Positions 3,286 to 22,822 are shown, numbered from the stretch's first letter. The stretch: 64,000 bases of DNA from Candidatus Omnitrophota bacterium (GCA_029261055.1 JAJDCA010000080.1:8952-72951); one strand, 5' to 3'. Numbers and translations are program-made. The notes: generated from the sequence alone by a model not told the origin.

Positions 3286-3334
3286 ACTTACCTCTATTCC
3301 TAATATACGGCACGGAAATCATTGCTATTTTACG

Positions 3335-3619
3335 TTAAGAGTTTTGAATATTTTTTTTAAGAATATCTCTAATCTCTTTTAAAAGCTTGACGCTCTCTTT
3401 TTCTTCTAGAATTAATTGATTTTTAATGTCTTTCAAAAGTTCGACGGCTTCTTTTTCATAATAAATACTGCGTTTAAAAGTACCAACTGTAGACTCTTGC
3501 TTTGATTTATTAAAATTATTACGGTATTTATTGCTAGCCTCCACAATAGCATTGAAACTGAAACAAAAAATAGTGGTTACTATTACAATTAGTAAACATA
3601 TTGAGAAATTTTTATTCAT
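3335..3619 (-). CDS. Small secreted coiled-coil protein, hypothetical
   Basis: N-terminal signal peptide, then a K/E-rich helical sequence with an internal repeat (ESVKLLKEI / EAVELLKDI). Confidence 0.4.
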   Translation of the reverse strand: MNKNFSICLLIVIVTTIFCFSFNAIVEASNKYRNNFNKSKQESTVGTFKRSIYYEKEAVELLKDIKNQLILEEKESVKLLKEIRDILKKNIQNS

Positions 3620-3790
3620 ATTTATATCCTTTTATTTTTAATAAATTTTTTTATCCTCATCGAGGTTCGCCTAAAAATTTCTGTTTGCACCTTTCATAAC
3701 AAAAGTAATTGATTGTTCCAGCTAATATATTCTTTATATCTGTCTTTTCCCCATCGCGACTACAAATGGGACATGTTTCCACGCCATCTC

Positions 3791-4924: not shown

Positions 4925-4961
4925 AATAATTTCTCCTTTTAATTAAATTAGTTGAAGCAGT

Positions 4962-5300
4962 TTAAATTGCATCCCTATCTGTTTCACCAGTTCGTATGCT
5001 AACGACGCTTTCTACAGGATTGACAAATATTTTGCCGTCCCCCTTTCGCCCCGTATGAGCATGTTCCTTAATACATTCGACTATCGCTTCCACTTCTTCG
5101 TCATAACAAGCAATTTCAATCTTAACTTTTGGTGTAAAATCAATCATATCGGCTCTGGAATGATGAGGATACGCCTCATCTTTTTCTTTACCAAAACCTT
5201 TAATGTCATTCATGCTCATTCCTCGCACATGAATTTTGTGCAATGCATCTGTAACTTTTTGAAGCATAAACGGTTGAATGTAAGCTTTGATTTCTTTCAT
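4962..5300 (-). CDS. P-II family signal-transduction protein of the 'new group' (PII-NG) type, last gene of the czc-like operon
   Basis: Near-colinear with GlnB: KAYIQPF...GMS..DIKGFG......VDF.PKVKIEI......GDGKIFV..V...IRTGE.D..AI, but with a divergent T-loop. PII-NG genes are known to accompany heavy-metal efflux genes. Confidence 0.7.
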   Translation of the reverse strand: MKEIKAYIQPFMLQKVTDALHKIHVRGMSMNDIKGFGKEKDEAYPHHSRADMIDFTPKVKIEIACYDEEVEAIVECIKEHAHTGRKGDGKIFVNPVESVVSIRTGETDRDAI

Positions 5301-5314
5301 TGATCTCCCCTTTT

Positions 5315-8300
5315 TTAATATTCAATTTTTTCCTCTTTTACAAACCAACCATAAAATGCTGGTATTGCAAAAAGTGTTAAAAATGTTGATGAAATTAAAC
5401 CCCCTATTACAACAATGGCCAGTGGCCTTTGCACCTCTGATCCCGTACCAGACGAAAGAACAAGAGGCATTAATCCTAAACCCGTCGTCATTGCCGTCAT
5501 TAAAACTGGTCTAAGTCGATCACACGCTCCCTGAATGGATGCCTCTATGACTTCCATCCCTTGTAATCTTAGTTGACCAATATGAGAAACAAGAACTAAC
5601 CCATTACCAACGGCAATACCAAATAAGGCAATAAAACCAACGGATGAAGGAACAGATAAGTTCTCCCCTGTAATTAACAATCCGATTAAACCTCCAACCA
5701 ATGCTAATGGGATATTAAGAACAATAAGTGACGCTTTCTGCATAGAGTTAAAAGAGGAATACAGTAATAAAAAAATTAATCCGATTGTAATCGGTACAAC
5801 AACCGCCAATCTTTTATTTGCCCTTTGTTGCAGCTCATAATCACCACCCCATTCAACAATATACCCTGGAGGAAAATCAATTTTCTCTTTTAAAACCTTT
5901 TGTCCTTCTTCAACGAAACCTCCGGTATCTCGTCCTCGAACATTTGCCTGAACAACAATTAAACGCTGATTATTTTCACGCTTGATTTGACGTGGGCCAA
6001 TGACTTCACGAATAGAAGCTACTTGTGATAAAGGCACTCTGGCTCCATCAGGTGTAGGAAGAAGTAACCGCGCAATATCCTCTTTTGTTGCCCGTTCATT
6101 TTCTCGATAACGAACAAGAATATCAAATCGTTTAACACCTTCAAATACTTGACCAGAAATTTCACCTCCAATTGCCGTGCTTATAGTTGTCTGAACTTCT
6201 TCCATCGACATTCCATAGCGTGCAATTTTATGAGGATCTGGTGTAATAACAAGTTGCGGTACTCCCGTTACTTGATCAGCCTGAACATCAGCAGCACCTT
6301 TAACTTGACTGATAACTTCGACAACCTCATCTGCCAAGAATTTTAATTTATCTAAATCGCTACCGTAAATCTTGATGGCTAAACTTGCTCTAACCCCCTC
6401 TAACATTTCATCAATGGTCATAGCAATGGGTTGAGTAAAACCTAAATTAACACCAGGAAACTTTGCCATCTTTTGACTTATTTTCACAAATAATTCTTCC
6501 TGAGTTTTAGCAGTTGTCCATTCCTTACGTGGTTTTAAGCCAACAAACATCTCCGCACTATTAACTGGATCAGCGTGAGCACCTACTTCACCACGACCAA
6601 CACGACTGACAACACGAGTTACTTCAGGAAATGTTAATAATTGCTTCTCCAACAAAAACGCTGTTTCTTTTGATGCAGTGAGTGAGATGGAAGGGGCCAT
6701 TGTAGCCCGAACTACTAACGTTCCCTCTTGAAGTTCGGGAGTAAACTCTTTTCCTAAGAATGGAAATACTAAAAACCCTACAACTGCAATACCCAAAGTA
6801 ACAAATACTGCTATTTTTCGATGCTTAACAAAAAAGTTTAAAGGGGGTTTATAAAATTTTAACAACCCATTCATTAATTCTTCGCCAAACGATATACGTC
6901 TTTTTTCATTATCGACCTTTTTAAGAATAAACGTACTTAACGCAGGAGCAAAAACCAAAGCATATATAAGTGAACTCAACATGGCTATGATGATTGTTAC
7001 CGCCAATGGTTTGAATGTTTTCCCCTCAACTCCTTGTAAAGAAAGTAATGGCAGAAAAACAATAACAACAATAAGGATAGCAAACATAATTGGTTTGCCC
7101 ATCTCCCGACAAGCTTCCATAATAATTTTTATCTTTGGCTGGTCCACAGATTCAGGTAATTTAAATCGACGGTCACAATTCTCAACCATAACAATAGAAG
7201 CATCCACCATCATCCCTATGGCTATCGCTAACCCACCTAAAGACATCAGGTTGGCTGATATTCCGTAATGTTTCATTAATATAAATGTTAAAAGAACACT
7301 AAAAGCAATCGCCCCAGCAACAATGAGTGATCCACTTAACCCGCCCATAAAGATAAATAGAATTAAAACAACTAATATGACCCCTTGAATAAGAGCGCTT
7401 GTTACGGTTTTAACACAAGCTTCAACGAGTTCTTTTTGATCATAGTAGGGAACAATTTTGATCCCTTCTGGCAAAGCATCGTTTATTGTTTCCAACTTTT
7501 TCTCAACATCTCGAATAACGGTTGAAGTATTTGTTCCAATTAATTTAACTACCATACCTGCGACAACTTCTCGTGTTCCATCTAAAGTCTGTAAACCTCG
7601 ACGAACAGCCCCGCCAATTTTTATATCCGCCAATTCTTTTAAGTAAATTCTGGTATTATCTTCGACTGTCTTAATAACAATATCTTCTAAATACTCGACG
7701 TTTGTTATTAAACCAATAGATCGAATGATATATTCTTCTTGTCCTTTTTCGATAAATTGTGCACCAATGTTCAAATTATTCTTCTTAACAGCTTCAACGA
7801 TTTCAGAAAGTGTAATGTTATAAGCTATTAACTTTTCTGGTTTAACAACAATTTGGTATTGACGTTCATCACCACCAATTCCAAGAACCTCTGTAACGCC
7901 AGTAACAGTTTGTAAATTAAATTTAACCAACCAATCCTGAATGGTACGCATCTCTTCTAATGTCCGTGTTCCTGTTTCATCTTCAAGATAATAGAAAAGA
8001 ATTAACCCTAATCCTGTTGAGATTGGACCCATTTCAGGATCGCCCATACCCTCTGGTATTTGCTCACGTGCTTCCGTAAGCCTCTCTCCAACCAACTGTC
8101 TTGCCCAGTAAATATCAGTGCCATCTTTGAAATAAACATTTACTACCGAAAGTCCAAAGTTGGATACAGATCTAATTTTCTCAACATCAGGTAATCCATT
8201 CATCGCTGTTTCCACTGGGTAGGTTACAAGTTGCTCAACTTCTTCAGGAGCTAACCCTTCGGTTACCGTAAAGACTTGAACAAGTGAAGGTGTAACATCG

Positions 8301-8419
8301 GGAAAAGCATCTATTGGTAATCGATCATAAGACCATTTACCCAAAACACATATCGCTATGAAAGCGATAATAATTAAAAGACGGTTTTTTAATGAAAAAT
8401 CTATAAGCTTATCTGTCAT
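5315..8419 (-). CDS. czcA: Heavy-metal efflux RND permease (CzcA/CusA family), system 1
   Basis: 1034 aa with 12-TM RND topology. Has the HME-RND N-terminus MTDKLIDFSLKNRLLIIIA, and the conserved segments and C-terminus typical of CzcA/CusA. Confidence 0.93.
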   Translation of the reverse strand: MTDKLIDFSLKNRLLIIIAFIAICVLGKWSYDRLPIDAFPDVTPSLVQVFTVTEGLAPEEVEQLVTYPVETAMNGLPDVEKIRSVSNFGLSVVNVYFKDGTDIYWARQLVGERLTEAREQIPEGMGDPEMGPISTGLGLILFYYLEDETGTRTLEEMRTIQDWLVKFNLQTVTGVTEVLGIGGDERQYQIVVKPEKLIAYNITLSEIVEAVKKNNLNIGAQFIEKGQEEYIIRSIGLITNVEYLEDIVIKTVEDNTRIYLKELADIKIGGAVRRGLQTLDGTREVVAGMVVKLIGTNTSTVIRDVEKKLETINDALPEGIKIVPYYDQKELVEACVKTVTSALIQGVILVVLILFIFMGGLSGSLIVAGAIAFSVLLTFILMKHYGISANLMSLGGLAIAIGMMVDASIVMVENCDRRFKLPESVDQPKIKIIMEACREMGKPIMFAILIVVIVFLPLLSLQGVEGKTFKPLAVTIIIAMLSSLIYALVFAPALSTFILKKVDNEKRRISFGEELMNGLLKFYKPPLNFFVKHRKIAVFVTLGIAVVGFLVFPFLGKEFTPELQEGTLVVRATMAPSISLTASKETAFLLEKQLLTFPEVTRVVSRVGRGEVGAHADPVNSAEMFVGLKPRKEWTTAKTQEELFVKISQKMAKFPGVNLGFTQPIAMTIDEMLEGVRASLAIKIYGSDLDKLKFLADEVVEVISQVKGAADVQADQVTGVPQLVITPDPHKIARYGMSMEEVQTTISTAIGGEISGQVFEGVKRFDILVRYRENERATKEDIARLLLPTPDGARVPLSQVASIREVIGPRQIKRENNQRLIVVQANVRGRDTGGFVEEGQKVLKEKIDFPPGYIVEWGGDYELQQRANKRLAVVVPITIGLIFLLLYSSFNSMQKASLIVLNIPLALVGGLIGLLITGENLSVPSSVGFIALFGIAVGNGLVLVSHIGQLRLQGMEVIEASIQGACDRLRPVLMTAMTTGLGLMPLVLSSGTGSEVQRPLAIVVIGGLISSTFLTLFAIPAFYGWFVKEEKIEY

Positions 8420-8438
8420 TATTTATCTCCATATATGA

Positions 8439-9602
8439 TTAATGATTATGTCCATCCCCAAAGGCTTCTTTGGCCTGTTCGCTCTTAAGATAAAAACTTC
8501 CTTGAGTAACAACAATTTCGCCTTCATTTAGACCCTTTGTGACTTCAACATAATCATTTACATTACGACCTAGAACTACTTCTCTTAATTTTAGGTTATT
8601 TCCTTCTTCCGCTACAAAAACGACATTTTCCTCATTTAACTGTTGAACGGCTGATGAGGGAACTGCTACAACTTTCTTACCGGATGCATAGATTAATTCG
8701 CCTGAGACGAACATGCCTAATCTCAAAAGATGATCTGGATTATCAACATCAACCCGAACTTTAATAGCTTGTGTATGTTCATCAACCTGTGGGGAAATAT
8801 AAACGACCTTTCCTTTAAAATTTTTACTAGGATATGCTGCCGTTGTTAAAGTAACTTTCTGCCCTACTTTTACAAGACGAAGATCTCTCTCGTAGATATC
8901 AATCGTTGCTCTTAAAGTATCTACATCAATAATGCTTAATAATGACGTTAAGGAATCAACTCTATCTCCTGGGTTAACAAAGATTGATAATAGAACGCCA
9001 TGTATTTCAGATTTAATATTTTCAAGTGTTCCATCAGCTTTGCGAATTGTAAGAAGATTCGTGCCTTTATTTACAATAATTCCTAAGTCAGCTTTTATTG
9101 ACTTAACGGTTCCTTCACCTTCAAATGTAACGTAGGAATAATTCTCGGTATCCTTGGCTATTTTGCCGTAGACTTTAAGATGCCCACCTAGCTTTCTTTT
9201 TGAAACCTTTTCTGTCTTAAGTTGGATCATGGAACGAGATTCTTCGTCCAAACTAATGACACCTTCTTCTCCATGATCATCGTGCCCTTCATCTGAGTCA
9301 GACTTCTCCTTATGATCGTCGTGACCCTCATGAGAATCAGATTTTTCTTCATGATCATCATGTCCTTTATGCAAATCAGCTTCTTCTTCATCATGATCCT
9401 CTTCACCATGATCATGACCACCATGAGACTCTTTTTTACGTTCAGATTTACGCTCTTTATGACTATCATGGTCATGCCCTGATTCAGCATAAATCAGCTT
9501 AGGCACAACTTGTGCACCTACAAAAGAAACAATAAGAAAACCTAATATTAGATACATTTTTTTTGAATTCATTCTATGATCCCCTCCTTGACAGAGTTTC
9601 AA
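8439..9602 (-). CDS. czcB: RND periplasmic adaptor (CzcB/CusB family) with a His/Asp/Glu-rich N-terminal extension of about 110 aa
   Basis: Membrane-fusion-protein core from VISLDEESRSMIQLKTEKV to the C-terminus. It is preceded by GHDHDSHKE...GHDDHEEKSDSHEGHDDHKEKSDSDEGHDDHGEEG repeats. The true start is likely at MNSKKMYLILG. Confidence 0.88.
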   Translation of the reverse strand: MKLCQGGDHRMNSKKMYLILGFLIVSFVGAQVVPKLIYAESGHDHDSHKERKSERKKESHGGHDHGEEDHDEEEADLHKGHDDHEEKSDSHEGHDDHKEKSDSDEGHDDHGEEGVISLDEESRSMIQLKTEKVSKRKLGGHLKVYGKIAKDTENYSYVTFEGEGTVKSIKADLGIIVNKGTNLLTIRKADGTLENIKSEIHGVLLSIFVNPGDRVDSLTSLLSIIDVDTLRATIDIYERDLRLVKVGQKVTLTTAAYPSKNFKGKVVYISPQVDEHTQAIKVRVDVDNPDHLLRLGMFVSGELIYASGKKVVAVPSSAVQQLNEENVVFVAEEGNNLKLREVVLGRNVNDYVEVTKGLNEGEIVVTQGSFYLKSEQAKEAFGDGHNH

Positions 9603-9642
9603 TTATTTTTTGACAGTATATATTTTATATTCATAACCTGAT

Positions 9643-9960
9643 TTAATCGTGGTCATGCCCTTTATCATCTTCATCATGCCCATCTTCTTTGTGGCCATGA
9701 TCGTCTTCACCATCCTCATGCTCGCCGTGGTCTTTATCATGATCATGTTCTTCATGCTCATCTTCAGACCCTTTGTTATGGTCGTGCCCATCATGGGAAT
9801 CTTCCTCATGTTCTTGTTCTTCTTCCTCATGAGCATGTCCCTTATGACCCTCCTCATCTTCTTGGTAATATTCACCATTTGTAGCTGCTGACACTCCTTG
9901 AACACTTGTGACTGACCACATAAAAAAACTTAATAGTATTGAAAAAATGATAGTTCTCAT
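9643..9960 (-). CDS. Secreted His/Asp/Glu-rich low-complexity periplasmic protein (putative metal-buffering protein) between czcC and czcB
   Basis: Signal peptide, then about 75 aa composed almost entirely of H, D, E, G and K in repeats (GHDHD, HEEHDHDKDHGEHEDGEDDHGHKEDGHDEDDKGHDHD). Confidence 0.55.
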   Translation of the reverse strand: MRTIIFSILLSFFMWSVTSVQGVSAATNGEYYQEDEEGHKGHAHEEEEQEHEEDSHDGHDHNKGSEDEHEEHDHDKDHGEHEDGEDDHGHKEDGHDEDDKGHDHD

Positions 9961-11306
9961 TATTTATTCTCCTTTAATTCAATTTCTCCACCGACGGCTT
10001 GTTCTAACACAGCCAATTTGCCTGCATAGTCAGCCAAAGTTTCTAAATATTCTTGTTTGGTTTCTTTATAAGATGCTAAACCTTCCAAATATATCAAAAA
10101 AGATGCTTCTCCCTCTTGATATTCGATAGTTATAATCCTTAATAATTCATTGGCCTCTTTAATGGCATTCTTCAAGTTAAGGACAGATCGTCGTGCCAAA
10201 TTTGCATTTTGAAATGCTTTATAAACATCCAACTCAACCTCTCGCTTTAACGCATCAAGCATCATCTCTGCTGTTTCCTTTTCAATAGAAGCCTCTTTTA
10301 TATCTTCCTGAAACTGATTCCAAATAGGAAATTCAAATGAAATACCAGCGCCAAGACCCCATAAAGTTTCTTCTCGCTCCGCGAATAATCCAAAGTTTAC
10401 ATCCGGCAGGCGTTGACGTTTGGAAAGTTGCAACTCTTTATCTTTCTTAGTAACCTCTTGTTCCTGATTTAAAATGTCTGCTCTTTCTTGTAAAGCAACG
10501 CTTAAAAGCTTATCAAGATTTTGATCCATGTCTTTGATCGTAAGATTATCTTTTAACGTTACTTCCTCACGCATATTTCTACCTAACAAAATGTTTAAAT
10601 CACTGACAGATACTTTAAAATCATTCTCAACCTTAAGAAGATCGTTGCGAGCCTTGGCCACCGCCAATTTCGCTCTTGCTATTTCATGATTTCTTGCTTT
10701 TCCAGCGTTGTATTTAATGTTTACTTGATCCAACAAACGCTGTGCTCTTTCCATATTATCGCGGGAAAGATCAATGCTCTTTTGGTGTAGAAGGGTTTCG
10801 GTATATCGTTCTTTTACTTCCCGCCCTACCTCTAATAACAGATCCTTAAGCCCTAACTCTGCTTGTATTTTTTCATCTTTGGCTATACTTATTTTAAGCC
10901 CACGTTTGCCAAACGTTTGTATTGGTTGGCTAAAACTAACGCCCCCTTCTGTTGTATCTGAATTGAATGTATTTTCCCCACCTAAATCATTGGGAATTTT
11001 AGCAATTTCAAGTTCCAATTCAGGGTTAGCAAATTTTTTACTCTGCCTATATTTTGCTTCCGAAATCCTAACATTCTGCCGTGCCTCTTGAACACTCGGA
11101 TTGTTTTGATAGGCAATAGAAAGAGCTTCCTCCATTGACAAAGAACTTTCCTTTGGGGAAGCAGCTATTGATGTTGCACAAAAAAGGGCTAATATCATGA
11201 TCGATAAAATCGGCTCACGAATTCTCGTCTTTTGATAAAAAACTATTTTATTTCGCATTTTCATATCTTTATGTCCTCTTTGATAGAATATTGCTCTATT
11301 TAACAA
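9960..11306 (-). CDS. czcC: Outer-membrane efflux protein (CzcC/TolC family)
   Basis: Signal peptide. Two-repeat OEP architecture with long coiled-coil segments. Positioned upstream of the MFP and RND genes. Confidence 0.85.
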   Translation of the reverse strand: MLNRAIFYQRGHKDMKMRNKIVFYQKTRIREPILSIMILALFCATSIAASPKESSLSMEEALSIAYQNNPSVQEARQNVRISEAKYRQSKKFANPELELEIAKIPNDLGGENTFNSDTTEGGVSFSQPIQTFGKRGLKISIAKDEKIQAELGLKDLLLEVGREVKERYTETLLHQKSIDLSRDNMERAQRLLDQVNIKYNAGKARNHEIARAKLAVAKARNDLLKVENDFKVSVSDLNILLGRNMREEVTLKDNLTIKDMDQNLDKLLSVALQERADILNQEQEVTKKDKELQLSKRQRLPDVNFGLFAEREETLWGLGAGISFEFPIWNQFQEDIKEASIEKETAEMMLDALKREVELDVYKAFQNANLARRSVLNLKNAIKEANELLRIITIEYQEGEASFLIYLEGLASYKETKQEYLETLADYAGKLAVLEQAVGGEIELKENK

Positions 11307-11579
11307 TTGTCTCTCCTGTATATGAGCATTTAAAATGCCGTCTACAGAGATCGGATTGCCTATATTTTAGATTCCGAAATACTGGACGTCTATTCCGTGG
11401 TCTACGTTTTCGATAAATGACTGAAACATTATTGAGCATGTTCATTAGATCACCTCACGAATTTAAATTTTATTTTATAACTTGTTGTAAAACAGTAACT
11501 TACGCACCGATAAATATTAACTGATGGTAAAAAAAGGGACCACTCCTATCCAAACAAACAAGATAGAAACAGCTAGGAA

Positions 11580-11852
11580 TTATGAGGAATAAATTGGCGG
11601 TCGATTAACTTTATCTAAGGAAGGACCTTCATAAAGAAATGAAAATGTAGAAAGATACTGCGAGGATGTGTCTGACGTAAAATGATTAGTAGATGACTGA
11701 GTATCTACCGTTGCACTACAAGAGGCATGACATACAATAATGCCATGATGGCACTCTTGAGAGCTTTGCTGATCATTACAGAAAGCTTCATTCGGCATAA
11801 CGGAAAAAAATAGAATACTAAGAAATAAAATTGTGAAAATTTTCTTTAACAT
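11580..11852 (-). CDS. Small secreted Cys-rich protein of the 'HRPPI-tail' family (copy A); first gene of the czcCBA-like operon, a positional analog of CzcI
   Basis: Signal peptide, C-x3-C-x2-SC core (CHHGIIVCHASC) and a C-terminal ...P-LDKVNRPPIYSS. A TTGACA-17-TATACT promoter lies immediately upstream. Confidence 0.5.
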   Translation of the reverse strand: MLKKIFTILFLSILFFSVMPNEAFCNDQQSSQECHHGIIVCHASCSATVDTQSSTNHFTSDTSSQYLSTFSFLYEGPSLDKVNRPPIYSS

Positions 11853-11921
11853 TTTCTAAAGTATAAAATCTAAATTTCTGTTTGTCAAGTTTAATTAACA
11901 ATCTTGTTTATGTTCATGTGA

Positions 11922-12392
11922 TCAAAACCAACATCGAACAGACTTTCTGTAGACTGAATATTTATCACCAAATCTCTGTTCTAAGTATTTTTCCTCGGGA
12001 ATCATGACACCGTACCATACAACAATTAGCGTGGGGATTAACAAAATCACTATCCAAATATTTCCAAATATGAAACCTATCCCCATCTGCAAAAGTGCCC
12101 TCCCAAAATACATTGGATGGCGAGACCGTTTATAGGGTCCTTTCATAATGAAAGATTTTACAGGTTTATACGGGCTTACGGGTGTTTTAGCCTTTTGAAA
12201 ACGATCAACACACAAAACAAGAATTCTTATACCTGCAATGAGAAAAATAATTCCCAAAGGAATATGAATAATCTTCGGTATTCCACGTAAAGGCAGAAAG
12301 AAGTTTATAACAAATCCCAGAGCTATAGATATTATAAAAATATATTCTGCCTGGGTTATAACTTCTGCATGATTTTCTTTTAATGATTTCAT
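11922..12392 (-). CDS. Membrane methyltransferase of the ICMT / phospholipid-methyltransferase family
   Basis: Multi-TM protein with the C-terminal SAM-binding motif RHPMYFG...EE..L...FG. Paralog of 47386..48036. Confidence 0.65.
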   Translation of the reverse strand: MKSLKENHAEVITQAEYIFIISIALGFVINFFLPLRGIPKIIHIPLGIIFLIAGIRILVLCVDRFQKAKTPVSPYKPVKSFIMKGPYKRSRHPMYFGRALLQMGIGFIFGNIWIVILLIPTLIVVWYGVMIPEEKYLEQRFGDKYSVYRKSVRCWF

Positions 12393-12506
12393 ATGTTGTC
12401 GAAATAAATAACTTTCTAAATTTTGATTACATCTTTTTAGTAGACGTTAACATAAACATTAAATATTTTCAAATTATTCAATTTCGGCAAGTCTTTTATC
12501 TTATAA

Positions 12507-13445
12507 TTAATCATCATCGTCCCCTGCAAAGGTTTCTTTATCTAGTTCACTCTTAAGATAAAAACTTCCACGCGTAACAACGATCTCACCTTCATCTAGC
12601 CCCTTTATGATTTCAACGTAATCATCCACAGTAGGACCTAGAACAACTTCCCTTAATTTTAAATTATTACCTTCTTTAGCTACAAAAACGATACTCTCTC
12701 CATTCATTTGCTGAATAGCATCTAAAGGAACAGCCAAGACTTTTTTATCTGATGAGTGAAATAATTTTCCAGAAACAAACATCCCCAAACGCAAAAGATG
12801 TTCAGGATTAGCCACATCAATCCGAACTTTAATAGCTTGGGTGCGCTCATCGACCTGCGGTGAAATATAGACCACTTTTCCATCAAATTTTTTATTTGGA
12901 TATGCAGCAGTCGTTAAGATAACCTTGTGTCCTACTTTGACAAGACGAAGGTCTGTCTCATAGATATCAATCGTTGCACGTAAAGTATCTACATTAATAA
13001 GGCTTAATAATGAGGTTAGAGGATCAACTCTATCTCCTGGTTTCACAAAAATGGACAAAACAGCTCCATGTGCTTCTGAATAGATTTTTTTAATAGTTCC
13101 ATCATCCTTACGAACAGTTAAAAGATGATCTCCTTTATTAACCTCGGAGCCTAATTTTATCTGAATGGTATCAACACCTCCTTCACCATCATATGTGACG
13201 TAGGAATAATCCTCTGTATCCTTAGACACTTTTCCATATATTTTTAAGTACTCATCAAGATTTCTTTTTGAGACTTTCTCCGTTTTAAGCTGAATCATAG
13301 ACCGGGCTTCTTTGTCTAAGTTAATAACACCTTTTTCATGCTCTTCATGCACTTCTTCTAAAGCATAAGCAAGATGAGGATTGATCTGTATAATTGAAAT
13401 ATAAAAAATACTGAAGACAAATAAATATAGTTTAAAGCTTTGCAT
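12507..13445 (-). CDS. Orphan RND periplasmic adaptor (CusB/CzcB paralog) lacking the His-rich extension
   Basis: About 75% aa identity to the core of 8439..9602 (VINLDKEARSMIQLKTEKVSKR...), with clear nucleotide-level similarity. No cognate RND pump is adjacent. Confidence 0.8.
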   Translation of the reverse strand: MQSFKLYLFVFSIFYISIIQINPHLAYALEEVHEEHEKGVINLDKEARSMIQLKTEKVSKRNLDEYLKIYGKVSKDTEDYSYVTYDGEGGVDTIQIKLGSEVNKGDHLLTVRKDDGTIKKIYSEAHGAVLSIFVKPGDRVDPLTSLLSLINVDTLRATIDIYETDLRLVKVGHKVILTTAAYPNKKFDGKVVYISPQVDERTQAIKVRIDVANPEHLLRLGMFVSGKLFHSSDKKVLAVPLDAIQQMNGESIVFVAKEGNNLKLREVVLGPTVDDYVEIIKGLDEGEIVVTRGSFYLKSELDKETFAGDDDD

Positions 13446-13559
13446 TAATGAACCTCCTCATAATTTATACTGACACTGATGGATATCTTTAATTCTTTAA
13501 AAATTAATTGATATATCTCTTGAATGAAGAAAAATTAAAAATAAAACAATTTGGATGTG

Positions 13560-13829
13560 TTAAATAGAAGAAATTGGGGGACGATGAATTTGGTCAAGGA
13601 TGGGTTCTTGATAATGAAATGTGCAATTTAAAGCAATATTTGGGGATTGTCCTATTGATGATTGTATCATCTGGACATCCGGCACGACAACATTATTGCA
13701 GGAAAAACATGCCAAAACACAATGATGCTGATGGCTATTCGCATCAAAGTTATGTTCTTGGCAAAAGGCATCTACTGGAATAGTTAATACCATAATACTA
13801 AGAAGAATTATAATAATTAATCGCTTCAT
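13560..13829 (-). CDS. Small secreted Cys-rich protein of the 'HRPPI-tail' family (copy B)
   Basis: Signal peptide, CVLACFSC core and the C-terminal EPILDQIHRPPISSI. It heads the orphan-MFP/ICMT pair. By my base-by-base reading the start codon sits about 2 nt from the track coordinate, so treat the ends as approximate. Confidence 0.45.
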   Translation of the reverse strand: MKRLIIIILLSIMVLTIPVDAFCQEHNFDANSHQHHCVLACFSCNNVVVPDVQMIQSSIGQSPNIALNCTFHYQEPILDQIHRPPISSI

Positions 13830-13927
13830 AATGATAGAGCCTACCTTTGGAATTCTTGTAGGTCAAAGCTTTTGCTACTGAAACTTTCAAAAGTTGAAAT
13901 GATCATATTGTCAATATTAATTATAAT

Positions 13928-14206
13928 CTAACAATTTCTATATGGTTCTTTTTTTTCTGTAATCATTGGAAGTGTCTTTGATTTTTCAGCGTTAAGTTGA
14001 ATATGGGCTTTCCATTTCTCTGGAACATCTTCTTCAGGAAAAATAGCTTGCACAGGACACTCTGTAACACAAGCCCCGCAATCGATACATACATCAGGAT
14101 CAATAACCAGCATTTCTTCATCTTCATGAAAACAGTCAACAGGGCAGACGACTACACAGTCAGTGTATTTTTGTTTTATACAAGGTTCTGTAACAACATA
14201 GGTCAT
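13928..14206 (-). CDS. Ferredoxin with 7Fe-type / 2x[4Fe-4S]-like motifs
   Basis: Two cysteine clusters, the second being the canonical [12 protein letters not shown]. Confidence 0.7.
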
Positions 14207-14207
14207 T

Positions 14208-14831
14208 TTATCTTTCCTTTTTTTTAAAATAGCAATAAATGAACTTTTGATCGGCTCCCCAGGGAGTTACGTGAGTTTCATTTACACTCTTAATAAACTT
14301 AAAAGATTTACCCAATTCATTCTTCATTTTTTTTGTATCATACTGTTCAATATTCAAGCCACTACATTTTGGTGGTCCAGCAATGGTAAAAGTTGAGATG
14401 ATTATATGAGCGCCTGGATTCAAAGCTTGATTCATACACTTCACATATTTTCTCCTATCTTTTACATCTGTAAGAAAATGAAAAACAGCGCGATCATGCC
14501 ATAAGTCATATTTATTTGAAGGATTATGTTCTGTTACATCAGACTCTATCCAAGTCACATCATCAGCCCGTTTTTTTAATCGTTCTTTAGCATAACCAAT
14601 TGCTTTTGATGAGATATCGAGAACAGTTAAATTTTTGAATCCTTTATCAAAAAGTTTATCTACTAGTACGGAAGCTCCTCCGCCAACATCTATAATATTA
14701 TTGGTGTAATTTATTCCGGTAGATATAATAAAATCCAATGATACCGTTGGCTGTGTTTGATACCAACTAACTTTTGTTGGCATCTTGGTCTCATATACGT
14801 TTTCCCAATGTGCTTTTCGATTAAAATTCAT
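14208..14831 (-). CDS. Class I SAM-dependent methyltransferase (small-molecule type); paralog of 46725..47429
   Basis: Glycine-rich SAM motif [11 protein letters not shown] and an acidic motif (VLDIS). The N-terminal HWENVYETK...VSWYQ motif is shared with the paralog. Confidence 0.75.
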
Positions 14832-14945
14832 AGTTTAACTCCTCCCTTTTATATGCCATTTACGTCCCTCCATACATTATGATATGATAATTTTCGCATT
14901 TTTTTATTTCATCCTGACAAACTATCCCTTTTGATACACAGTACT

Positions 14946-15983
14946 TCAGGAGTTAATCTGCTGGCCTGCTTTTTTCCACGCATCGAAGCCGTCTATAAGA
15001 TGGCAAACACCGGACAAGCCCTTTTCCTTGGCAGTACGCACCGCAAGCGCTGAACGCTCACCAAAGGCGCAGTAAAAAAATATCCGTTTCGCACCTGAAA
15101 ATATTTCTTTGTGCATTGGGTTGTTACGGTCGATATAGGCCTCAAGGTGTGGATAAGGTACATGCACGGAGCCGGGAATAAATCCTTCTTTTTTTCGTTC
15201 CTTATCTTCACGTAGATCGACCCAAATGACACCCGGATTCTTGAGATATCCACTGGCTTGCTCGACTGTGAGCGCCTTGTCTGGCGTTAGGGCTTCGGTT
15301 TGACAATGTCCGATTGAGATGTTGGCTGGCACAGCCACGTCCATCAATTTCGGGTTGGGCAAAGTAAGGTTATTCATAAGTTCGACATATTGCTCGATGG
15401 ATCTCACTTGCAGGCGCGGATTCCGCAGTCGTTCCTCGCCGATTGTTGAGACGGTCTCGCCCTTGTAGTCGTGTGCGGGATAAACCAGCGTCGTATCTGG
15501 CATCCGCAGGAGTTTATTAAACAAAGAGTCATATTGTGCCCGCGGATCACCACTTTGGAAATCCGTGCGTCCCGTACCTCTAATCAATAATGTGTCCCCG
15601 GTGAATATGCAGCCAGGCAAATGGAAACTATAGGAGTCAATCGTATGGCCCGGAGTATAAAGCACATTCAAGCTGAGCCCATCAATGTCGATCGTATCTC
15701 CCTCTTTCACGCGCATGGAGACGACATCGACTGGGCTTTGTTCGCCCATGACGGTGATACAACGCGTCTTATCGCGCAGTTCTCCTAATCCTGTGATGTG
15801 ATCGGCATGAACATGGGTATCTGCCGCCTTAACCAGCTTTAATTCAAGCCGTTCCATTAAATTGAGGTAATTTTGTACATGCTCCAAAACCGGATCAATG
15901 ATAAGTGCCTCACCGCCCTTGCGGCTAGCCAGTATGTATGTGAATGTGCTCGACTCTTGATCGAATAGCTGCTTAAAAATCAT
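14946..15983 (-). CDS. Metallo-beta-lactamase-fold persulfide dioxygenase (ETHE1-like) fused to a C-terminal rhodanese domain (CstB/Blh-like)
   Basis: HVHADH metal-binding motif typical of the MBL fold and ETHE1. The C-terminal rhodanese has an active-site Cys loop (FYCAFGERS). Confidence 0.72.
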   Translation of the reverse strand: MIFKQLFDQESSTFTYILASRKGGEALIIDPVLEHVQNYLNLMERLELKLVKAADTHVHADHITGLGELRDKTRCITVMGEQSPVDVVSMRVKEGDTIDIDGLSLNVLYTPGHTIDSYSFHLPGCIFTGDTLLIRGTGRTDFQSGDPRAQYDSLFNKLLRMPDTTLVYPAHDYKGETVSTIGEERLRNPRLQVRSIEQYVELMNNLTLPNPKLMDVAVPANISIGHCQTEALTPDKALTVEQASGYLKNPGVIWVDLREDKERKKEGFIPGSVHVPYPHLEAYIDRNNPMHKEIFSGAKRIFFYCAFGERSALAVRTAKEKGLSGVCHLIDGFDAWKKAGQQINS

Positions 15984-16033
15984 GCGCTCTCCCCTTCTTC
16001 AACCATTTTTTATTATATGACAGTGAAAAATAC

Positions 16034-16192
16034 AGTTACAAACTATTTCTTCTTAACAGCCTTTGAAATTTTATCTAATTTCACCACGATAAGTATCGTA
16101 AAAACTATAAACCAGATAAAGACTACCCATCCTAACAAATAACCCATTGAACCCATCAAATAACCTTGATTTGAATAAAAAGGACACCACAT
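16034..16192 (-). CDS. Putative small hydrophobic membrane protein (about 52 aa), not in the ORF track; coordinates approximate
   Basis: Strong Shine-Dalgarno AAAGGAGG 7 nt upstream of the ATG. My translation is MWCPFYSNQGYLMGSMGYLLGWVVFIWFIVFTILIVVKLDKFQRLLRRNSL. Confidence 0.3.
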
Positions 16193-16268
16193 TTCAAACC
16201 TCCTTTAGTTTATCTACTAGGGAGAAACATTAAGTCCCTCCCTGTCCTTAACTTACTTAAGTTTTTAT

Positions 16269-16589
16269 TTAACAGCAGGATCCATGAGAACCATGATAAT
16301 AGCCACTGCCTTTTCCCCCTCCCATACAATTCATGGGACATCCACAATCTACATAAGAATCTGAATGCTGGCCATAACCAAAGGAATCTTTATACCAACT
16401 GGCATTGGCCTGAATTTCCTTAATGATTTGCGAGTCATCTGAGGTGACGGTAATTTGAACTCCATTATCAATATTTTTGACCTCAGTATTGACCTGATCC
16501 CTTGAATAATGGGCAGAAACATTGCTTATAGCGATGAAACCACCAAATAAAACGGTTACTGCAAGAATTATAAATATTTTTTTATTCAT
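16269..16589 (-). CDS. Secreted Cys/Gly/His-rich small protein (metallothionein-like periplasmic metal binder?)
   Basis: Signal peptide. The C-terminus reads CGCPMNCMGGGKGSGYYHGSHGSCC. Confidence 0.5.
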   Translation of the reverse strand: MNKKIFIILAVTVLFGGFIAISNVSAHYSRDQVNTEVKNIDNGVQITVTSDDSQIIKEIQANASWYKDSFGYGQHSDSYVDCGCPMNCMGGGKGSGYYHGSHGSCC

Positions 16590-16744
16590 TTTTTACCCCC
16601 ATTTCTTTTCCAATGTTCATTAAAAAATTGTTAATTAACCTTTTGCATATTCGTTCTATTTTTTCCTCACCTCCTTAATTTTTTGGTTTCCATCTGTAAA
16701 GACGAAGAAAATTGCAAAACGTTACGAAAAATTTTTAATTATCT

Positions 16745-17551
16745 TCAGTGATTCCATGAACACCACTCATTAGGAGGCACTCTCTCATATTTCATATCAT
16801 CCATCCATTTCATGCGGCTACCGCACGTCTCAATAGCTTTCTCCAGCGCTTGTTTCTGATGTTGAGGTGCTTTATCTCTAAAATTCTCTAAGATATCCTT
16901 ATTATAAGCATTTAAATGTTGTAATTTTGAGACGTAAACAGTCCTCTGCGGCTTGGGCAGCTTTGAGATATCATGTACGGCTAAAGCTGCTTCATTAAGC
17001 ATGGCTTGAATGAGTTGAGTATCTAACTCTCCATTTTCTTCAAAATATTGGACTAGCTCTTGAGTCCTTTCTTCTGAAAAAGTCAGGCGAAGTTCTGCCT
17101 TTCCTTCGGAATTGGGCGTTAAGTAAAATCTGACTTTCTCTGTAACAATCTTGATAGGATACAGGATATCTCCGGGAAAACTTGCTGCTGAAATATTCAC
17201 TGTCCCCCAAGAAACAAAGATAAGGACTAAAGCAAAAACAACCCCCCTCTGCCAAGCAGGAGAAGGAAAATTGAAAAACCATCGCCATTTAAAAGAAGGA
17301 GATTCTTCAACGTCATCTGAAAATTGTTCCTTTTGACGTTGCAGCTCTTTTCCGACATTAATAAGAGTAGAGGCAAAGGCTTCATCGCGTATCTGCGGTA
17401 ATGTTGAGTCATACATATCTGTCATAATAACAAGGAGTTGCTCTAATTGCTCTTTATGCTCAGGGTAGTCCTTAACTACTTCATCCAGAGCTTCTCCCTG
17501 CATGATCCGGTTAATACAAAGGTCTAAAATGTCTTCAAAAGAGTTAATCAT
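16745..17551 (-). CDS. Putative membrane-spanning anti-sigma factor
   Basis: Immediately downstream of, and translationally coupled to, the ECF sigma gene. Has a central TM segment and a periplasmic C-terminal domain. Confidence 0.5.
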   Translation of the reverse strand: MINSFEDILDLCINRIMQGEALDEVVKDYPEHKEQLEQLLVIMTDMYDSTLPQIRDEAFASTLINVGKELQRQKEQFSDDVEESPSFKWRWFFNFPSPAWQRGVVFALVLIFVSWGTVNISAASFPGDILYPIKIVTEKVRFYLTPNSEGKAELRLTFSEERTQELVQYFEENGELDTQLIQAMLNEAALAVHDISKLPKPQRTVYVSKLQHLNAYNKDILENFRDKAPQHQKQALEKAIETCGSRMKWMDDMKYERVPPNEWCSWNH

Positions 17552-17553
17552 AA

Positions 17554-18123
17554 TTATTTCATCTCTCGTTTTAAAACATCTCTTAAAGTCGTAAGGGCTC
17601 GAAACTGTAGAAGCTTAACTGCCCCGACTGACTTATTAATGCTTCGCGCTATTTCCTCATTAGAATGCCCTTCAATAAACTTGAGTGTGATTACTTCCTT
17701 CTGATCATCTGTTAAAAATTGAAGCATTTTCTTTATATCTTCTGGATAAAGCGAATCTCTATTATTCTTATCTTTTGCCGCTGTAATCTCTTGCACTTCA
17801 TTCAAGGATGTTTCCTTCTTTCCCCCTTTTTTCCTGTAATAATCAATAAGCACATTTTTGGCTATTCGAAAAAGCCACGCTATAAAATTGCCTTTTTGTT
17901 TTTCTATCGCTGAAACCATCCTGACAAAAACATCATTAGTTAAATCTTCAGCATCTTCTTTTAAGTTCGTTCGATAATACAGATATCGAAAAATAAACGG
18001 ATAACTTTCTTTTACCAATGTCGCAAGGGCGTCTTCATCAAGCAATCGTGCTCTTTTAACAACATTTTCTGGAATGTCTAATCTCTTAGTCTTTTCCATA
18101 ATATATAGACGAAAAATAGCCAA
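17554..18123 (-). CDS. ECF-type RNA polymerase sigma-70 family factor
   Basis: Sigma region 2 (FIAWLFRIAKNVLIDYYRKK) and region 4 HTH (EEIARSINKSVGAVKLLQFRALTTLR). Confidence 0.8.
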   Translation of the reverse strand: MAIFRLYIMEKTKRLDIPENVVKRARLLDEDALATLVKESYPFIFRYLYYRTNLKEDAEDLTNDVFVRMVSAIEKQKGNFIAWLFRIAKNVLIDYYRKKGGKKETSLNEVQEITAAKDKNNRDSLYPEDIKKMLQFLTDDQKEVITLKFIEGHSNEEIARSINKSVGAVKLLQFRALTTLRDVLKREMK

Positions 18124-18128
18124 ATAAG

Positions 18129-18992
18129 TTACGCATTTTTTATATTTCGCATCCTATTGTATAATCCTGTTATACCTATTAAAATCATCACGAAACAAAG
18201 AATTTGTCCCATAGAAAAATTACCGAATACAAAGCCCATATGTTCATCTGGTTGTCGCACATATTCTATAAAGAACCTGACGCACCCATAACCTATAAAA
18301 TAAAGAAAAAACAAAAAACCGTCTGGATATTTCTTTTTGCGTATATTCCATAAAATTACAAATAAAATTATCCCTTCAAAAAAAGCTTCGTAGAGTTGTG
18401 ATGGATGCCTTAGTTGACTCAAGGAATCAGTTGGAAAATACATCCCCCAAGGCACGTCAGTAATTCGTCCATAAAGCTCACCGTTAAGAAAATTACCTAT
18501 TCGGCCAAGAGTATATCCTAACGGGATAGTTGGAATAAGTAGATCCGTGAAATTCCAAAAATTAATTTTCTTTTTAGAACAATATATTTTTGTTGCTAAA
18601 AATAAACCTATAACACCTCCGTGATAAGATAATCCAAGAATACCCACATACCGGACTCCATTAGTAAAATCGAATGGAAGAAATATTTCCAACGGGTGAA
18701 AAATAAAGTACCCTAAGTTGTAAAATAAAACATAGCCCAGCCTCCCGCCCAATATGACTCCTAAAATAGCCCATTGAAAATAATCTAATATTGTTTCTTT
18801 CGTATATGCGTATCGATCCCTTTTTATTCTGTATAAAACAAGACAGTAGACCGTAACAATTGCTGCCAAATACATCAACGAATAATAGCGTAATTGAAAC
18901 GAGCCAATTTCAAAAATATTGGGAGTAATATTCTCGGGTAGATGTTGCCAATAATTCATATATTGTCTTCCCATGTCTTTTGCTTTATGCAT
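18129..18992 (-). CDS. lgt: Prolipoprotein diacylglyceryl transferase
   Basis: Multi-TM protein with Lgt signatures (N-terminal F.IG.F..RYY.L.Y, the YHGG motif, GRIGNFLNGELYG). Confidence 0.8.
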   Translation of the reverse strand: MHKAKDMGRQYMNYWQHLPENITPNIFEIGSFQLRYYSLMYLAAIVTVYCLVLYRIKRDRYAYTKETILDYFQWAILGVILGGRLGYVLFYNLGYFIFHPLEIFLPFDFTNGVRYVGILGLSYHGGVIGLFLATKIYCSKKKINFWNFTDLLIPTIPLGYTLGRIGNFLNGELYGRITDVPWGMYFPTDSLSQLRHPSQLYEAFFEGIILFVILWNIRKKKYPDGFLFFLYFIGYGCVRFFIEYVRQPDEHMGFVFGNFSMGQILCFVMILIGITGLYNRMRNIKNA

Positions 18993-19471
18993 CCTATGAC
19001 CATGAAAAAAGCACCAATTGTAATAGCACTGTCAGCGATATTGAATATAGGCCATATTCTAAAATCAATAAAATCAATTACATACCCTAGGTAAATACGG
19101 TTAAGCAAATTGCTAATTGCACCTCCTAGTATTAGAGAAAATGATGTGACGTACAGCCGGTTTAGTTTGCCTTGATTGTTCCAATAATAGTAAATATTAA
19201 ACACCAGAAGAAGAATCGCTACAATCGGAATAATAATCCATACAAAACCGGCATCTTTAAACATTCCAAATGCAATCCCTGTGTTATGGCCAAGAGTAAA
19301 ATGAAACACCTTGGGTATAACGGGAATAGATTCTCCCAATGAAAGAACTTCCGAGAAAAAATTCTTTAAGAACTGATCAATAAAAACAACTAAAAATATC
19401 GTTATAAAAGTTATCAAAATATCAATATTGGATCGACTGTGCTCTTTTATATTCATAATCAAAGTATTCAT
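18956..19471 (-). CDS. lspA: Lipoprotein signal peptidase II
   Basis: LspA motifs NTG.AFG and FNIADSAITIGAFFMV. Four TM segments. Overlaps lgt by 37 nt. Confidence 0.85.
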   Translation of the reverse strand: MNTLIMNIKEHSRSNIDILITFITIFLVVFIDQFLKNFFSEVLSLGESIPVIPKVFHFTLGHNTGIAFGMFKDAGFVWIIIPIVAILLLVFNIYYYWNNQGKLNRLYVTSFSLILGGAISNLLNRIYLGYVIDFIDFRIWPIFNIADSAITIGAFFMVIGCIKQKTWEDNI

Positions 19472-19550
19472 TTTTTAATTTAAAAATAAAAATTTTACTA
19501 AACACAATAAATAATAAATGGATTAATTACTAAGGAAAAAAGGGGTGGAT

Positions 19551-19817
19551 TTAAGAAGAGTGAATCGGTGGGCGATGTGCCTTTTCGAGGATAGGGTCCT
19601 GATGATCAAAAAAGTAACAGAAGACCATCTTTGAATATGGTTTTGTAAATGATGAATGGGTTTGAATATCCGGCAAGGTAGCGTTATGACATGATAAACA
19701 CATAAAAATACAACCCTGTGCAGCATCCTTATCCATACCGTTATCAGAACAATATGCATATAAAGGTAGAGAAAACATAACAATAGATATTAGTATTATA
19801 ACTATCAACCGTTTCAT
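19551..19817 (-). CDS. Small secreted Cys-rich protein of the 'HRPPI-tail' family (copy C), heading the lspA-lgt-sigma operon
   Basis: Signal peptide, CIFMCLSC core and the C-terminal DPILEKAHRPPIHSS. The alternative overlapping frame 19523..19783 has no family support. Confidence 0.5.
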   Translation of the reverse strand: MKRLIVIILISIVMFSLPLYAYCSDNGMDKDAAQGCIFMCLSCHNATLPDIQTHSSFTKPYSKMVFCYFFDHQDPILEKAHRPPIHSS

Positions 19818-19894
19818 AATTTAAAAGTTATCATTTATCTTAGTAGAAGTCAAACATTTTGAAATTGCTATTTGCAACTCCTCCTAAAAATTAT

Positions 19895-20098
19895 TTAACA
19901 ATAATTCTTTTCTTCCTGCCTTGGCAGGCATTTAACAGCACCGTAAGAACAAAAGACGCAACAGTCCCCTTCTTTTGGCTTTAATTTTACTCCACAATTA
20001 GAACAGTTGTAAAAAAACTGGCAAGCAGATGTTGGTATTGTTTCTTCTTTTTCAAAACCACATTCAGGACACTTAATTATTGATTTTAATTTAGCCAT
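19895..20098 (-). CDS. Small Cys-rich protein with double zinc-ribbon-like motifs ('GDCC' mini-protein), copy 1
   Basis: CPECG...CQFFYNCSNCG...KPKEGDCCVFCSYG. 80% identical to 22613..22822. Confidence 0.55.
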   Translation of the reverse strand: MAKLKSIIKCPECGFEKEETIPTSACQFFYNCSNCGVKLKPKEGDCCVFCSYGAVKCLPRQEEKNYC

Positions 20099-20133
20099 TT
20101 GATAGCTTTAGAATGAGTTATTTGTAACAGATA

Positions 20134-22117: not shown

Positions 22118-22129
22118 ATTATCTCCAAT

Positions 22130-22504: not shown

Positions 22505-22612
22505 TTTTCCTCGCTTTCATACTTGCATTACTATGCAAGTATATATCCAAAAATACACATTGTCAATAATTTTAAGGTTACAGCATCATTTAAACCACTA
22601 TTAAAAAATTAT

Positions 22613-22822
22613 TTAGAAACAATTTTTTTCTTCCTGCTTTGGCGGGCATTTGACCGTGCCAAATGAACAAAATACACAACAATCCCCTTCTTTTGGCTTT
22701 AATCTTGCTCCGCAATTTGTGCAATTATAAAAAAATTGGCAAGAATTCGTCGGCATGGTTTTTTCTTTTTTAAAACCACATTTAGGACATGTAAGGAGAG
22801 AACGCATTAACATTATTTGCAC
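22613..22822 (-). CDS. Small Cys-rich 'GDCC' mini-protein, copy 2
   Basis: CPKCG...CQFFYNCTNCG...KPKEGDCCVFCSFG. Paralog of 19895..20098. Confidence 0.55.
   Translation of the reverse strand: MQIMLMRSLLTCPKCGFKKEKTMPTNSCQFFYNCTNCGARLKPKEGDCCVFCSFGTVKCPPKQEEKNCF

Follow-up and report, generated by a model that had tools for sequence, protein, structure and literature searches.

A 64,000-nucleotide (nt) stretch of DNA from a Candidatus Omnitrophota bacterium (GCA_029261055.1 JAJDCA010000080.1:8952-72951), referred to in full as the window, carries three small open reading frames (ORFs), termed copies A, B and C, each of which is the first gene of an envelope operon. We read them, with a probability of about 0.62, as leader peptides that sense metal and act in cis in the manner of CutF, CopL and CruR, that is, as exported arrest peptides. 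The observations behind this reading are (i) Cys/His and Pro motifs held at fixed distances from each other and from the stop codon; (ii) selection at the level of translation; (iii) the position at operon heads; and (iv) a common promoter layout that brings the -10 element to within 7-8 nt of the ATG. An earlier reading made from the DNA alone (the sequence-only reading) had listed a metal-sensing role among several functions, and it is the one that best accounts for the data.

Three paralogous genes with a fixed tail geometry

The three ORFs of 88-90 amino acids (aa) described by the sequence-only reading are present on the minus strand, at 11852..11580 (copy A, 90 aa), 13829..13560 (copy B, 89 aa) and 19817..19551 (copy C, 88 aa), and their translations end exactly in the tails that it quoted. 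Plus-strand translations of the same intervals are riddled with stops. Copy A has a signal peptide, an FC pair, an HH-x4-C-HAS-C core and the tail ...FLYEGPSLDKVNRPPIYSS-stop. The core is HHCVLACFSC in copy B, with the tail ...FHYQEPILDQIHRPPISSI-stop, and GCIFMCLSCH in copy C, with the tail ...FDHQDPILEKAHRPPIHSS-stop. The C-x3-C-x2-C core that had been attributed to all three is found in B and C; copy A reads C-x6-C-x3-C, and 'SC' alone is common to the three. When all window ORFs were compared with a hidden Markov model (HMM) of the family, exactly three matched (A, 93 bits; B, 98 bits; C, 86 bits), and no further copy was found. Amino-acid identity between pairs of paralogues is 27-40%. 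The R-P-P of the tail is encoded by CGA CCG CCA in copy A (11595..11603, minus strand), four sense codons ahead of the stop, where we propose that the ribosome would stall, by CGT CCC CCA in copy B (13575..13583, minus strand) and by CGC CCA CCG in copy C (19566..19574, minus strand).

The ratio of nonsynonymous to synonymous substitution rates (dN/dS) was 0.13-0.56 in all informative family pairs, with synonymous sites close to saturation, and 0.42 between copy A and its Tara orthologue (L004). These ratios and the number of relatives detected (85 cluster representatives at E<=1e-3) set the three ORFs apart from chance. Copies A, B and C are genuine genes under translation-level selection and belong to one paralogous family.

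A word-indexed search yielded five relatives only. The 85 representatives, 45 of them at E<=1e-10, came from an exhaustive HMMER scan of 1.84 billion protein representatives, a search of the kind that the sequence-only reading had proposed, and show that the family is not confined to the window. Nearly all of these relatives are 87-95 aa long and aligned end to end. The family occurs mainly in Candidatus Omnitrophota and is covered by no curated model, leaving ~85 protein clusters unannotated by current Pfam/NCBIfam models. The nearest CzcA homologues were found in Candidatus Omnitrophota metagenome-assembled genomes (MAGs), with 91% identity in HK-STAS-OMNI-4 and 76-78% in several others, an origin that the window most likely shares. 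At CzcA identities of at least 76%, a family member stood directly upstream of genes for an OEP protein, a membrane fusion protein (MFP), a resistance-nodulation-division (RND) transporter and a P-II protein in 8/8 loci; at 53% or less, 0/6 loci had one upstream. Since these genome-scan loci were chosen through CzcA, they are informative about whether the family is present and not about which genes adjoin it.

Family anatomy was counted over 87 sequences (alignment A4). A signal peptide, as the sequence-only reading had supposed, is predicted heuristically by a K/R n-region and a 12-residue hydrophobic run in 80/87 members. AlphaFold2 was confident only for a helix over the corresponding residues 2-18; the mature part scored <50 in predicted local distance difference (pLDDT), from a shallow alignment (n=8), and is predicted to be disordered. 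A search of solved structures found no relative of the family. The signal peptide ends in P-L-D/E-A/G-F-C, with G/A at -1 in 61/87 and L/I/V at -3 in 42/87 members ahead of F-C, which suggests cleavage by signal peptidase I between A/G and F-C. A lipobox at the conserved Cys was considered and disfavoured: -1 is F/Y and -3 is D/E, and the A/G stands two residues before the Cys, as a signal peptidase I site would have it.

A putative metal-binding region follows, consisting of an acidic His-rich stretch and then HHC-x3-C-H-x2-C, with Cx3C present in 83/87 members. After a weakly conserved linker of ~25-30 residues comes the tail, with the consensus F-x-Y-Q-x-P-x-L-D-x-x-K/H-R-P-P, four further residues and the stop. 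Counted from PP, the conserved positions are F(-13), Y(-11) in 71/87, Q/E(-10) in 74/87, P(-8) in 77/87, L/I(-6) in 76/87 and R(-1) in 70/87; PP is followed by I/V/K-x-x-x-stop, and the conserved segment covers -13 to +2. PP itself is invariant and lies within the last 15 residues in 87/87 members, with exactly four residues after it in 72/87. The distance from the first Cys of Cx3C to PP is 43-49 residues in 83/87. RPP and PPP alternate among close A-type orthologues: the window has NRPPI, the Tara orthologue NPPPI and L028 DPPPI. The sequence-only reading took the tail for a recognition tag or part of a secreted signal. Fixed where it is, with four codons left to the stop and the Cys core 43-49 residues behind it, R-P-P matches the RAPP/PPP arrest layout of CruR and CutF (PMC9426467; bioRxiv 10.1101/2025.02.05.636593), and the tag is left unsupported.

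The codon used at the first Pro of PP was also recorded. It is CCU in 11/15 loci (L001, L003, L004, L009, L011 and L016-L021), against 26% CCU at the other Pro codons of the same ORFs, and at the Pro pair CCU creates an anti-Shine-Dalgarno-like CCUCC at the proposed stall site. The anti-Shine-Dalgarno idea forms no part of our explanation; the string is enriched in relatives, yet 0/3 window copies use CCU.

Promoters, junctions and a proposed mechanism

The promoter that the sequence-only reading had assigned to copy A, TTGACA-17-TATACT, lies at 11860..11888 on the minus strand (-35 at 11888..11883, -10 at 11865..11860), 7 nt from the ATG, and is the sole 11/12 consensus match within 9800-20200. 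Promoters of the same layout, on which that reading was silent, precede copy B (TTGACC-17-TAGGCT, 13838..13866, minus strand, 8 nt to the ATG) and copy C (TTGACT-17-TAACTT, 19825..19853, minus strand, 7 nt to the ATG). The shared layout, a TTGACA-like -35 element (at least 5/6), a 16-17-nt spacer, TAnnnT and 6-10 nt to the ATG without a Shine-Dalgarno (SD) sequence, is found at 3/3 window copies and at 18/22 assessable external loci (21/25 in total). A loose form of this pattern occurs at 5/337 candidate starts in the window, namely the three family genes and two spurious nested ORFs (2/334 non-family starts), and at 0.7% of random positions. Its rarity at other window starts marks the layout as specific to the family and not genome-wide. 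From this layout we deduce mRNAs with little or no leader, made from strong promoters that are probably constitutive, so that the near-leaderless transcript envisaged for copy A is probable. Such promoters would suit genes whose control is exerted after initiation.

The junctions that follow the small ORFs contain candidate read-out elements of two sorts. After copy A, a terminator-like hairpin (11529..11573, minus strand; 13 bp with many G-U pairs, followed by CCC and U7) begins 6 nt past the stop, and is stronger in the Tara orthologue (z = -5.9) than in the window (z = -0.06). A ribosome holding the first Pro codon in its P site would have its leading edge ~12 nt short of this hairpin, whereas at the stop codon it would overlap the hairpin base; either polarity of the response, with metal prolonging the stall or relieving it, would fit this geometry. 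An intrinsic terminator was rejected as the general read-out: apart from copy A, it follows the Tara orthologue alone, and L028 lacks it. The copy B junction (13446..13559, minus strand) is unstructured, C-rich and G-poor, with a C/G ratio of 4.3 over -60..+60 around the stop (100th percentile). In the copy C junction (19472..19550, minus strand), the pyrimidine tract AUCCACCCCUUUUUUCCUUA comes right after the stop, with a C/G ratio of 2.5 (99.5th percentile) and without stable structure. For B, C and most relatives the ratio is 1.9-4.3, against a strand median of 0.71 in 120-nt windows, and many junctions have a CCC-U6-CCUUA tract 6-21 nt past the stop. We infer that in B, C and most relatives the C-rich, G-poor tract is a rut-like Rho-loading site, as in CruR.

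Long-range pairings in global minimum free energy structures were weak and without conservation, and were set aside. A scan of 4500-23500 against Rfam (E<=1) returned no known RNA element. A small basic ORF of ~50 aa in the spacer between copy A and czcC (11292..11444, minus strand, ATG at 11444, preceded by an SD sequence, MNMLNNVSVIYRKRRPRNRRP...) is probably not a conserved gene, since it lies within a 94-nt insertion absent from the Tara orthologue.

We propose that a strong sigma-70-type promoter would yield an mRNA starting at or beside the AUG, so that the first ribosome would load directly behind RNA polymerase. By analogy with CutF, the signal peptide would then take the nascent chain to the Sec translocon co-translationally. 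Elongation would pause at the R-P-P four codons before the stop. At the pause, the conserved 13-residue segment F-x-Y-Q-x-P-x-L-D-x-x-K/H-R would occupy the upper part of the exit tunnel. The Cys/His cluster, 43-49 residues nearer the N-terminus, would just have emerged from the tunnel, and metal binding or disulfide formation by the cluster, together with pulling through, may set the length of the pause. In a more speculative step, pause length would decide transcription or translation into the downstream operon, likely through shielding or exposure of the rut-like tract for B, C and most relatives, and probably through the hairpin and U7 for A. Differing Cys/His cores could allow separate responses of czcCBA, of the orphan MFP with its CzcN-like methyltransferase, and of lspA-lgt with its extracytoplasmic function (ECF) sigma factor.

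A more specific form of this proposal, which we hold only tentatively and think rather doubtful, treats the family as a distinct, hitherto undescribed branch of metal-sensing arrest peptides, mostly from Omnitrophota: leaderless mRNA would lock the pioneer ribosome to RNA polymerase, the stall would use a spacer-less R-P-P, the output would be transcription attenuation (Rho-dependent or intrinsic) in place of SD unmasking, and copy C would put lspA, lgt and ECF sigma/anti-sigma under nascent-chain metal control. If true, metal stress would be linked to remodelling of the lipoprotein envelope via copy C.

Operon context and competing accounts

Pfam domains of the downstream genes agree with the view of the sequence-only reading that each copy heads an envelope operon, and A, B and C are each the first gene. 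All three operons lie on the minus strand. Copy A is followed at 4962..11306 by a czcC-like OEP gene (probable start ATG 11264), a His-rich ORF, a czcB-like HlyD_D23 MFP gene, a czcA-like ACR_tran RND gene and a P-II gene. The operon after copy B (11922..13445) consists of an orphan HlyD_D23 MFP gene (13445..12507) and a gene for a CzcN-like PEMT/ICMT membrane methyltransferase (12392..11922). That after copy C (16745..19471) comprises lspA (Peptidase_A8, 19471..18956), lgt (18992..18129), an ECF sigma gene (18123..17554) and a probable anti-sigma gene (17551..16745), assigned by position alone. Intergenic lengths after the small ORF are 315 nt (A), 114 nt (B) and 79 nt (C), and 33-217 nt in relatives.

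Downstream sequence was readable in 23 external loci. The neighbourhood check of relatives that the sequence-only reading had suggested placed an OEP gene directly downstream in 21/23 of them; in the other two the next gene was an ICMT-like gene followed by OEP (L022) or an orphan MFP gene, as after copy B (L025b). The lspA-lgt context of copy C is absent from all external loci. One family copy stands at each regulated operon, three in the window and two in L025 (Omnitrophota MAG OFTM55). The L025 copies (3330..3641 and 9771..10076) are divergent and belong to one island, one ahead of OEP-MFP-RND-PII and the other ahead of an orphan MFP, which mirrors copies A and B.

The 64-kb window is a large metal-resistance island (~36% GC); besides three RND systems, it encodes a heavy-metal P-type ATPase with YHS and HMBD domains, an ArsR regulator and cytochromes. 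Apart from a few nested ones on the plus strand, all of its ORFs of at least 120 aa lie on the minus strand, and the GC skew is negative throughout. Other small or unusual proteins accompany the three operons. Between czcC and czcB lies the gene for a 105-aa secreted protein (9643..9960, minus strand), whose start overlaps the czcC stop. His, Asp, Glu, Gly and Lys make up nearly all of its mature part (…HKGHAHEEEEQEHEEDSHDGHDHNKG…), and it may buffer metal in the periplasm. Shortly past the probable anti-sigma gene, a protein of 106 aa with a signal peptide and a C-terminus rich in Cys, His and Gly (…CGCPMNCMGGGKGSGYYHGSHGSCC) is encoded at 16269..16589 (minus strand). Two paralogous Cys-rich proteins of 67-69 aa with CPxCGF…GDCCVFCS are encoded at 19895..20098 and 22613..22822 (minus strand), and one of them adjoins the copy C promoter on its upstream side; we take them to resemble GDCCVxC-type small metal-binding proteins of mercury and metal islands. 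At 44106..46061 (minus strand), a PEP-utilising enzyme of 651 aa (PtsI/PpsA-like) is fused at its C-terminus to a YHS metal-binding domain, which is unusual.

An alternative to leader peptides is a CzcI-like mature periplasmic modulator or chaperone that would act post-translationally on the efflux complex, with the tail as a protein-protein contact surface. Gene order speaks for it: copy A holds the czcI position, as the sequence-only reading had remarked, with a CzcN-like PEMT/ICMT gene (12392..11922) immediately upstream and OEP-MFP-RND downstream, which is the czcN-czcI-czcCBA order of pMOL30, where CzcN is also of the PEMT/ICMT type. An ICMT-like gene again stands beside family members in L004, L019 and L022. 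The products are predicted to be exported and are Cys/His-rich, and CzcI, a periplasmic protein, is reported to quench CzcCBA for Zn/Co (PMC10127602). Such a role could also coexist with one in cis. Yet the mature region is predicted to be disordered, and conservation lies in the tail, at a set distance from the stop and the Cys core, whereas the 25-30 residue linker between them varies. Copies B (orphan MFP) and C (lspA-lgt-ECF sigma) head no complete pump, and a trans-acting factor needs no copy per operon. In addition, the mature forms of CutF and CruR are undetectable or rapidly degraded (PMC9973294, PMC9426467), and the family profile aligned with authentic pMOL30 CzcI at a probability of only 1.7% (hhalign). 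We therefore consider this account unlikely. With a mature part predicted to be disordered and one copy per regulated operon, a cis-acting leader peptide fits better than a trans-acting periplasmic chaperone, and the chaperone proposed in the sequence-only reading loses ground accordingly.

It is very improbable that the peptides are secreted signalling or antimicrobial precursors, akin to ribosomally synthesized and post-translationally modified peptides, in which the C-terminal tail would be a tag for recognition or processing. As would suit such precursors, they are small, have a signal peptide and several Cys residues and end in a conserved terminus, but the neighbours are efflux and envelope genes, and no peptide-modifying enzyme, peptidase-domain ABC exporter or immunity gene was found adjacent in 26 loci. 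Moreover, a C-terminal recognition element fixed to the stop codon would be atypical, and the Cys/His core resembles metal sites, in a window that is itself a metal-resistance island. A repeated non-coding promoter/terminator cassette with fortuitous reading frames, which the sequence-only reading had named as one finding that would overturn its own proposal and which the conserved promoter and pyrimidine tract at each copy might recall, is refuted by the dN/dS values with near-saturated synonymous sites, by the low identity of the paralogues and by a frame and length kept in ~85 divergent cluster representatives.

The following points weigh against cis-acting leader peptides. Stalling, export, metal binding, cis action and the downstream read-out are inferred for this family. 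Pfam DUF2946 (PF11162; gathering threshold 23.7 bits) matched 0/3 window copies and 0/4 consensus sequences, and 1/87 members at E = 0.067. NCBIfam CopL_fam (NF033807) matched 20/87 members and 4/4 consensus sequences, always in register, with the mature peptide from the Cys core to the C-terminus on profile positions 67-128 of 129; the scores were 14-21 bits against a cut-off of 40 (copy B 17.4; consensus 14-16; best member E = 3.4e-4). NCBIfam CzcI-like (NF045615) gave 12 bits for copy A against a cut-off of 100, and 4/87 members gave sub-threshold hits. With curated thresholds missed and the hhalign value for CzcI given above, the resemblance to characterised members may reflect either common descent or convergence, although the family fits the operational CutF-like definition. 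The motif of the family is RPP, whereas RAPP/RGPP and PPP are the motifs shown to arrest. No CutF-type stem-loop occluding an SD sequence was found; B, C and B-type junctions folded like shuffled sequence (z -0.5 to +1.1). The copy A hairpin is weak taken alone and missing in the closest genome, L028. Finally, the selection of genome-scan loci via CzcA biases the neighbourhoods.

Comparison with known systems

The CutF-like class is defined by rules: its members are shorter than 150 aa, start with a signal peptide, carry a Cys/His motif and have PP among their last 15 residues, and the gene that follows is on the same strand; most often this neighbour is OEP (PMC9973294). All of these features are present here (88-90 aa; a signal peptide by heuristic; PP in 87/87; the Cys/His core; the downstream gene). 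Together with the sub-threshold, in-register CopL_fam matches, this speaks against the earlier remark that no match to a known family could be recognised. CutF of Rhodobacter capsulatus is exported and has an N-proximal Cys, C41xxxC45 and a C-terminal PPP (bioRxiv 10.1101/2025.02.05.636593); Cu binding during co-translational export leads to a longer stall and unmasks the cutO ribosome-binding site (PMC9973294; bioRxiv 10.1101/2025.02.05.636593). The family resembles it in small size, a Sec signal peptide, an N-proximal Cys with CxxxC and a Pro motif ~40 residues past the core, and resembles the class in heading metal-homeostasis operons, in the OEP (CusC/CzcC) neighbour and in an expected unstable or unstructured mature protein. 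In contrast to CutF, most members have RPP (some A-type members PPP), no SD-shielding stem-loop and a leaderless-type promoter. The class is known from Pseudomonadota and Bacteroidota, whereas this family belongs to Omnitrophota and one of its copies heads lspA-lgt-ECF sigma.

A further candidate of the class was noted on the Paraburkholderia fungorum plasmid pBIL (L015), where a 'hypothetical protein' downstream of dsbD (505..861) has a signal peptide, Cys/His motifs and an LQPPPRTL C-terminal tail, with homologues on 29 Burkholderia, Paraburkholderia and Caballeronia plasmids; judged by these features it is another, uncurated, CutF-like peptide. A CueO-seeded plasmid search returned oxidases without an annotated CopL.

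CruR (Bp2923 of Bordetella pertussis, DUF2946) has a CXXC, 45 residues and then RAPP, 3 residues from the stop, with the Cys-to-RAPP spacing conserved to 1-2 residues in its family (PMC9426467). Its nascent chain senses Cu, the arrest is relieved and Rho-dependent termination follows (PMC9426467), and toeprinting has demonstrated arrest at RAPP (PMC12992588). The likeness lies in an upstream ORF with a Cys motif 45 residues (43-49 in our family) from an Arg-...-Pro-Pro placed 3-4 residues before the stop, in a C-rich, G-poor unstructured region that fits a Rho-dependent read-out, and in a disordered mature part, reported for CruR and predicted here. The CXXC and RAPP hallmarks of DUF2946 are replaced by Cx3C-x2-C and K/H-R-P-P, with no residue between R and PP. 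CruR also differs in its 45-nt leader, as against the leaderless-type layout of the window copies, in its 162-nt GC-rich intergenic region, in heading a gene for a TonB-dependent importer and in a signal peptide that is dispensable.

CopL acts in cis and is required for Cu induction of the downstream gene (summarised in PMC9973294). The model built on it (Xanthomonas/Stenotrophomonas copLAB) is the only curated one matched repeatedly and in register, but what follows CopL is a gene for a multicopper oxidase, in place of an RND efflux operon. On pMOL30 of Cupriavidus metallidurans, czcI has the gene order of copy A, and its product a comparable layout: the signal peptide is followed by an aromatic residue with Cys (YC), a stretch rich in His, the Cys motif CGVCH and, ~40 residues further on, an R-A-P element (RAPD). 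This RAPD stands 10 residues from the C-terminus, without PP. In C. metallidurans both a monocistronic czcI transcript and a czcICBA transcript occur (PMC10127602), so partial termination after this positional analogue exists. The pMOL30 czcI (L041 1377..1724) scores 15.7 bits against DUF2946, below the threshold of 23.7. This score and RAPD, a degenerate RAPP ~40 residues past CGVCH, suggest that an arrest peptide built along these general lines may have decayed into CzcI. SecM, ApdA and ApdP are likewise small exported cis regulators whose conserved C-terminal 15-17 residues end in Arg-x-Pro/Gly-Pro before the stop; they monitor the Sec/YidC machinery and not metals, with the motif R-A/G-P/G-P. 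Relative to RAPP-type arrest peptides (PMC12992588), the small secretory nature and the C-terminal position are shared, whereas R-A/G-P-P is replaced by R-P-P (70/87) or P-P-P.

Experiments have worked out how an exported nascent chain senses metal during its translation for CutF and CruR only, both from Proteobacteria. The present family would bring this principle into an uncultivated phylum and to the RND efflux operons that are the commonest genomic context of the class; leaderless initiation as an obligatory step and regulation of lspA-lgt-ECF sigma would be additions to the paradigm. A natural comparison is offered by the three paralogues, whose Cys/His cores differ and which stand in one island ahead of three different operons. 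The kind is already known from CutF, CopL and CruR; what appears to be new is that the family lies outside the curated models and is distributed in Omnitrophota, that its RPP has no spacer, that nearly all loci share the leaderless layout, that a single island holds three paralogues and that lspA-lgt-ECF sigma would be a target.

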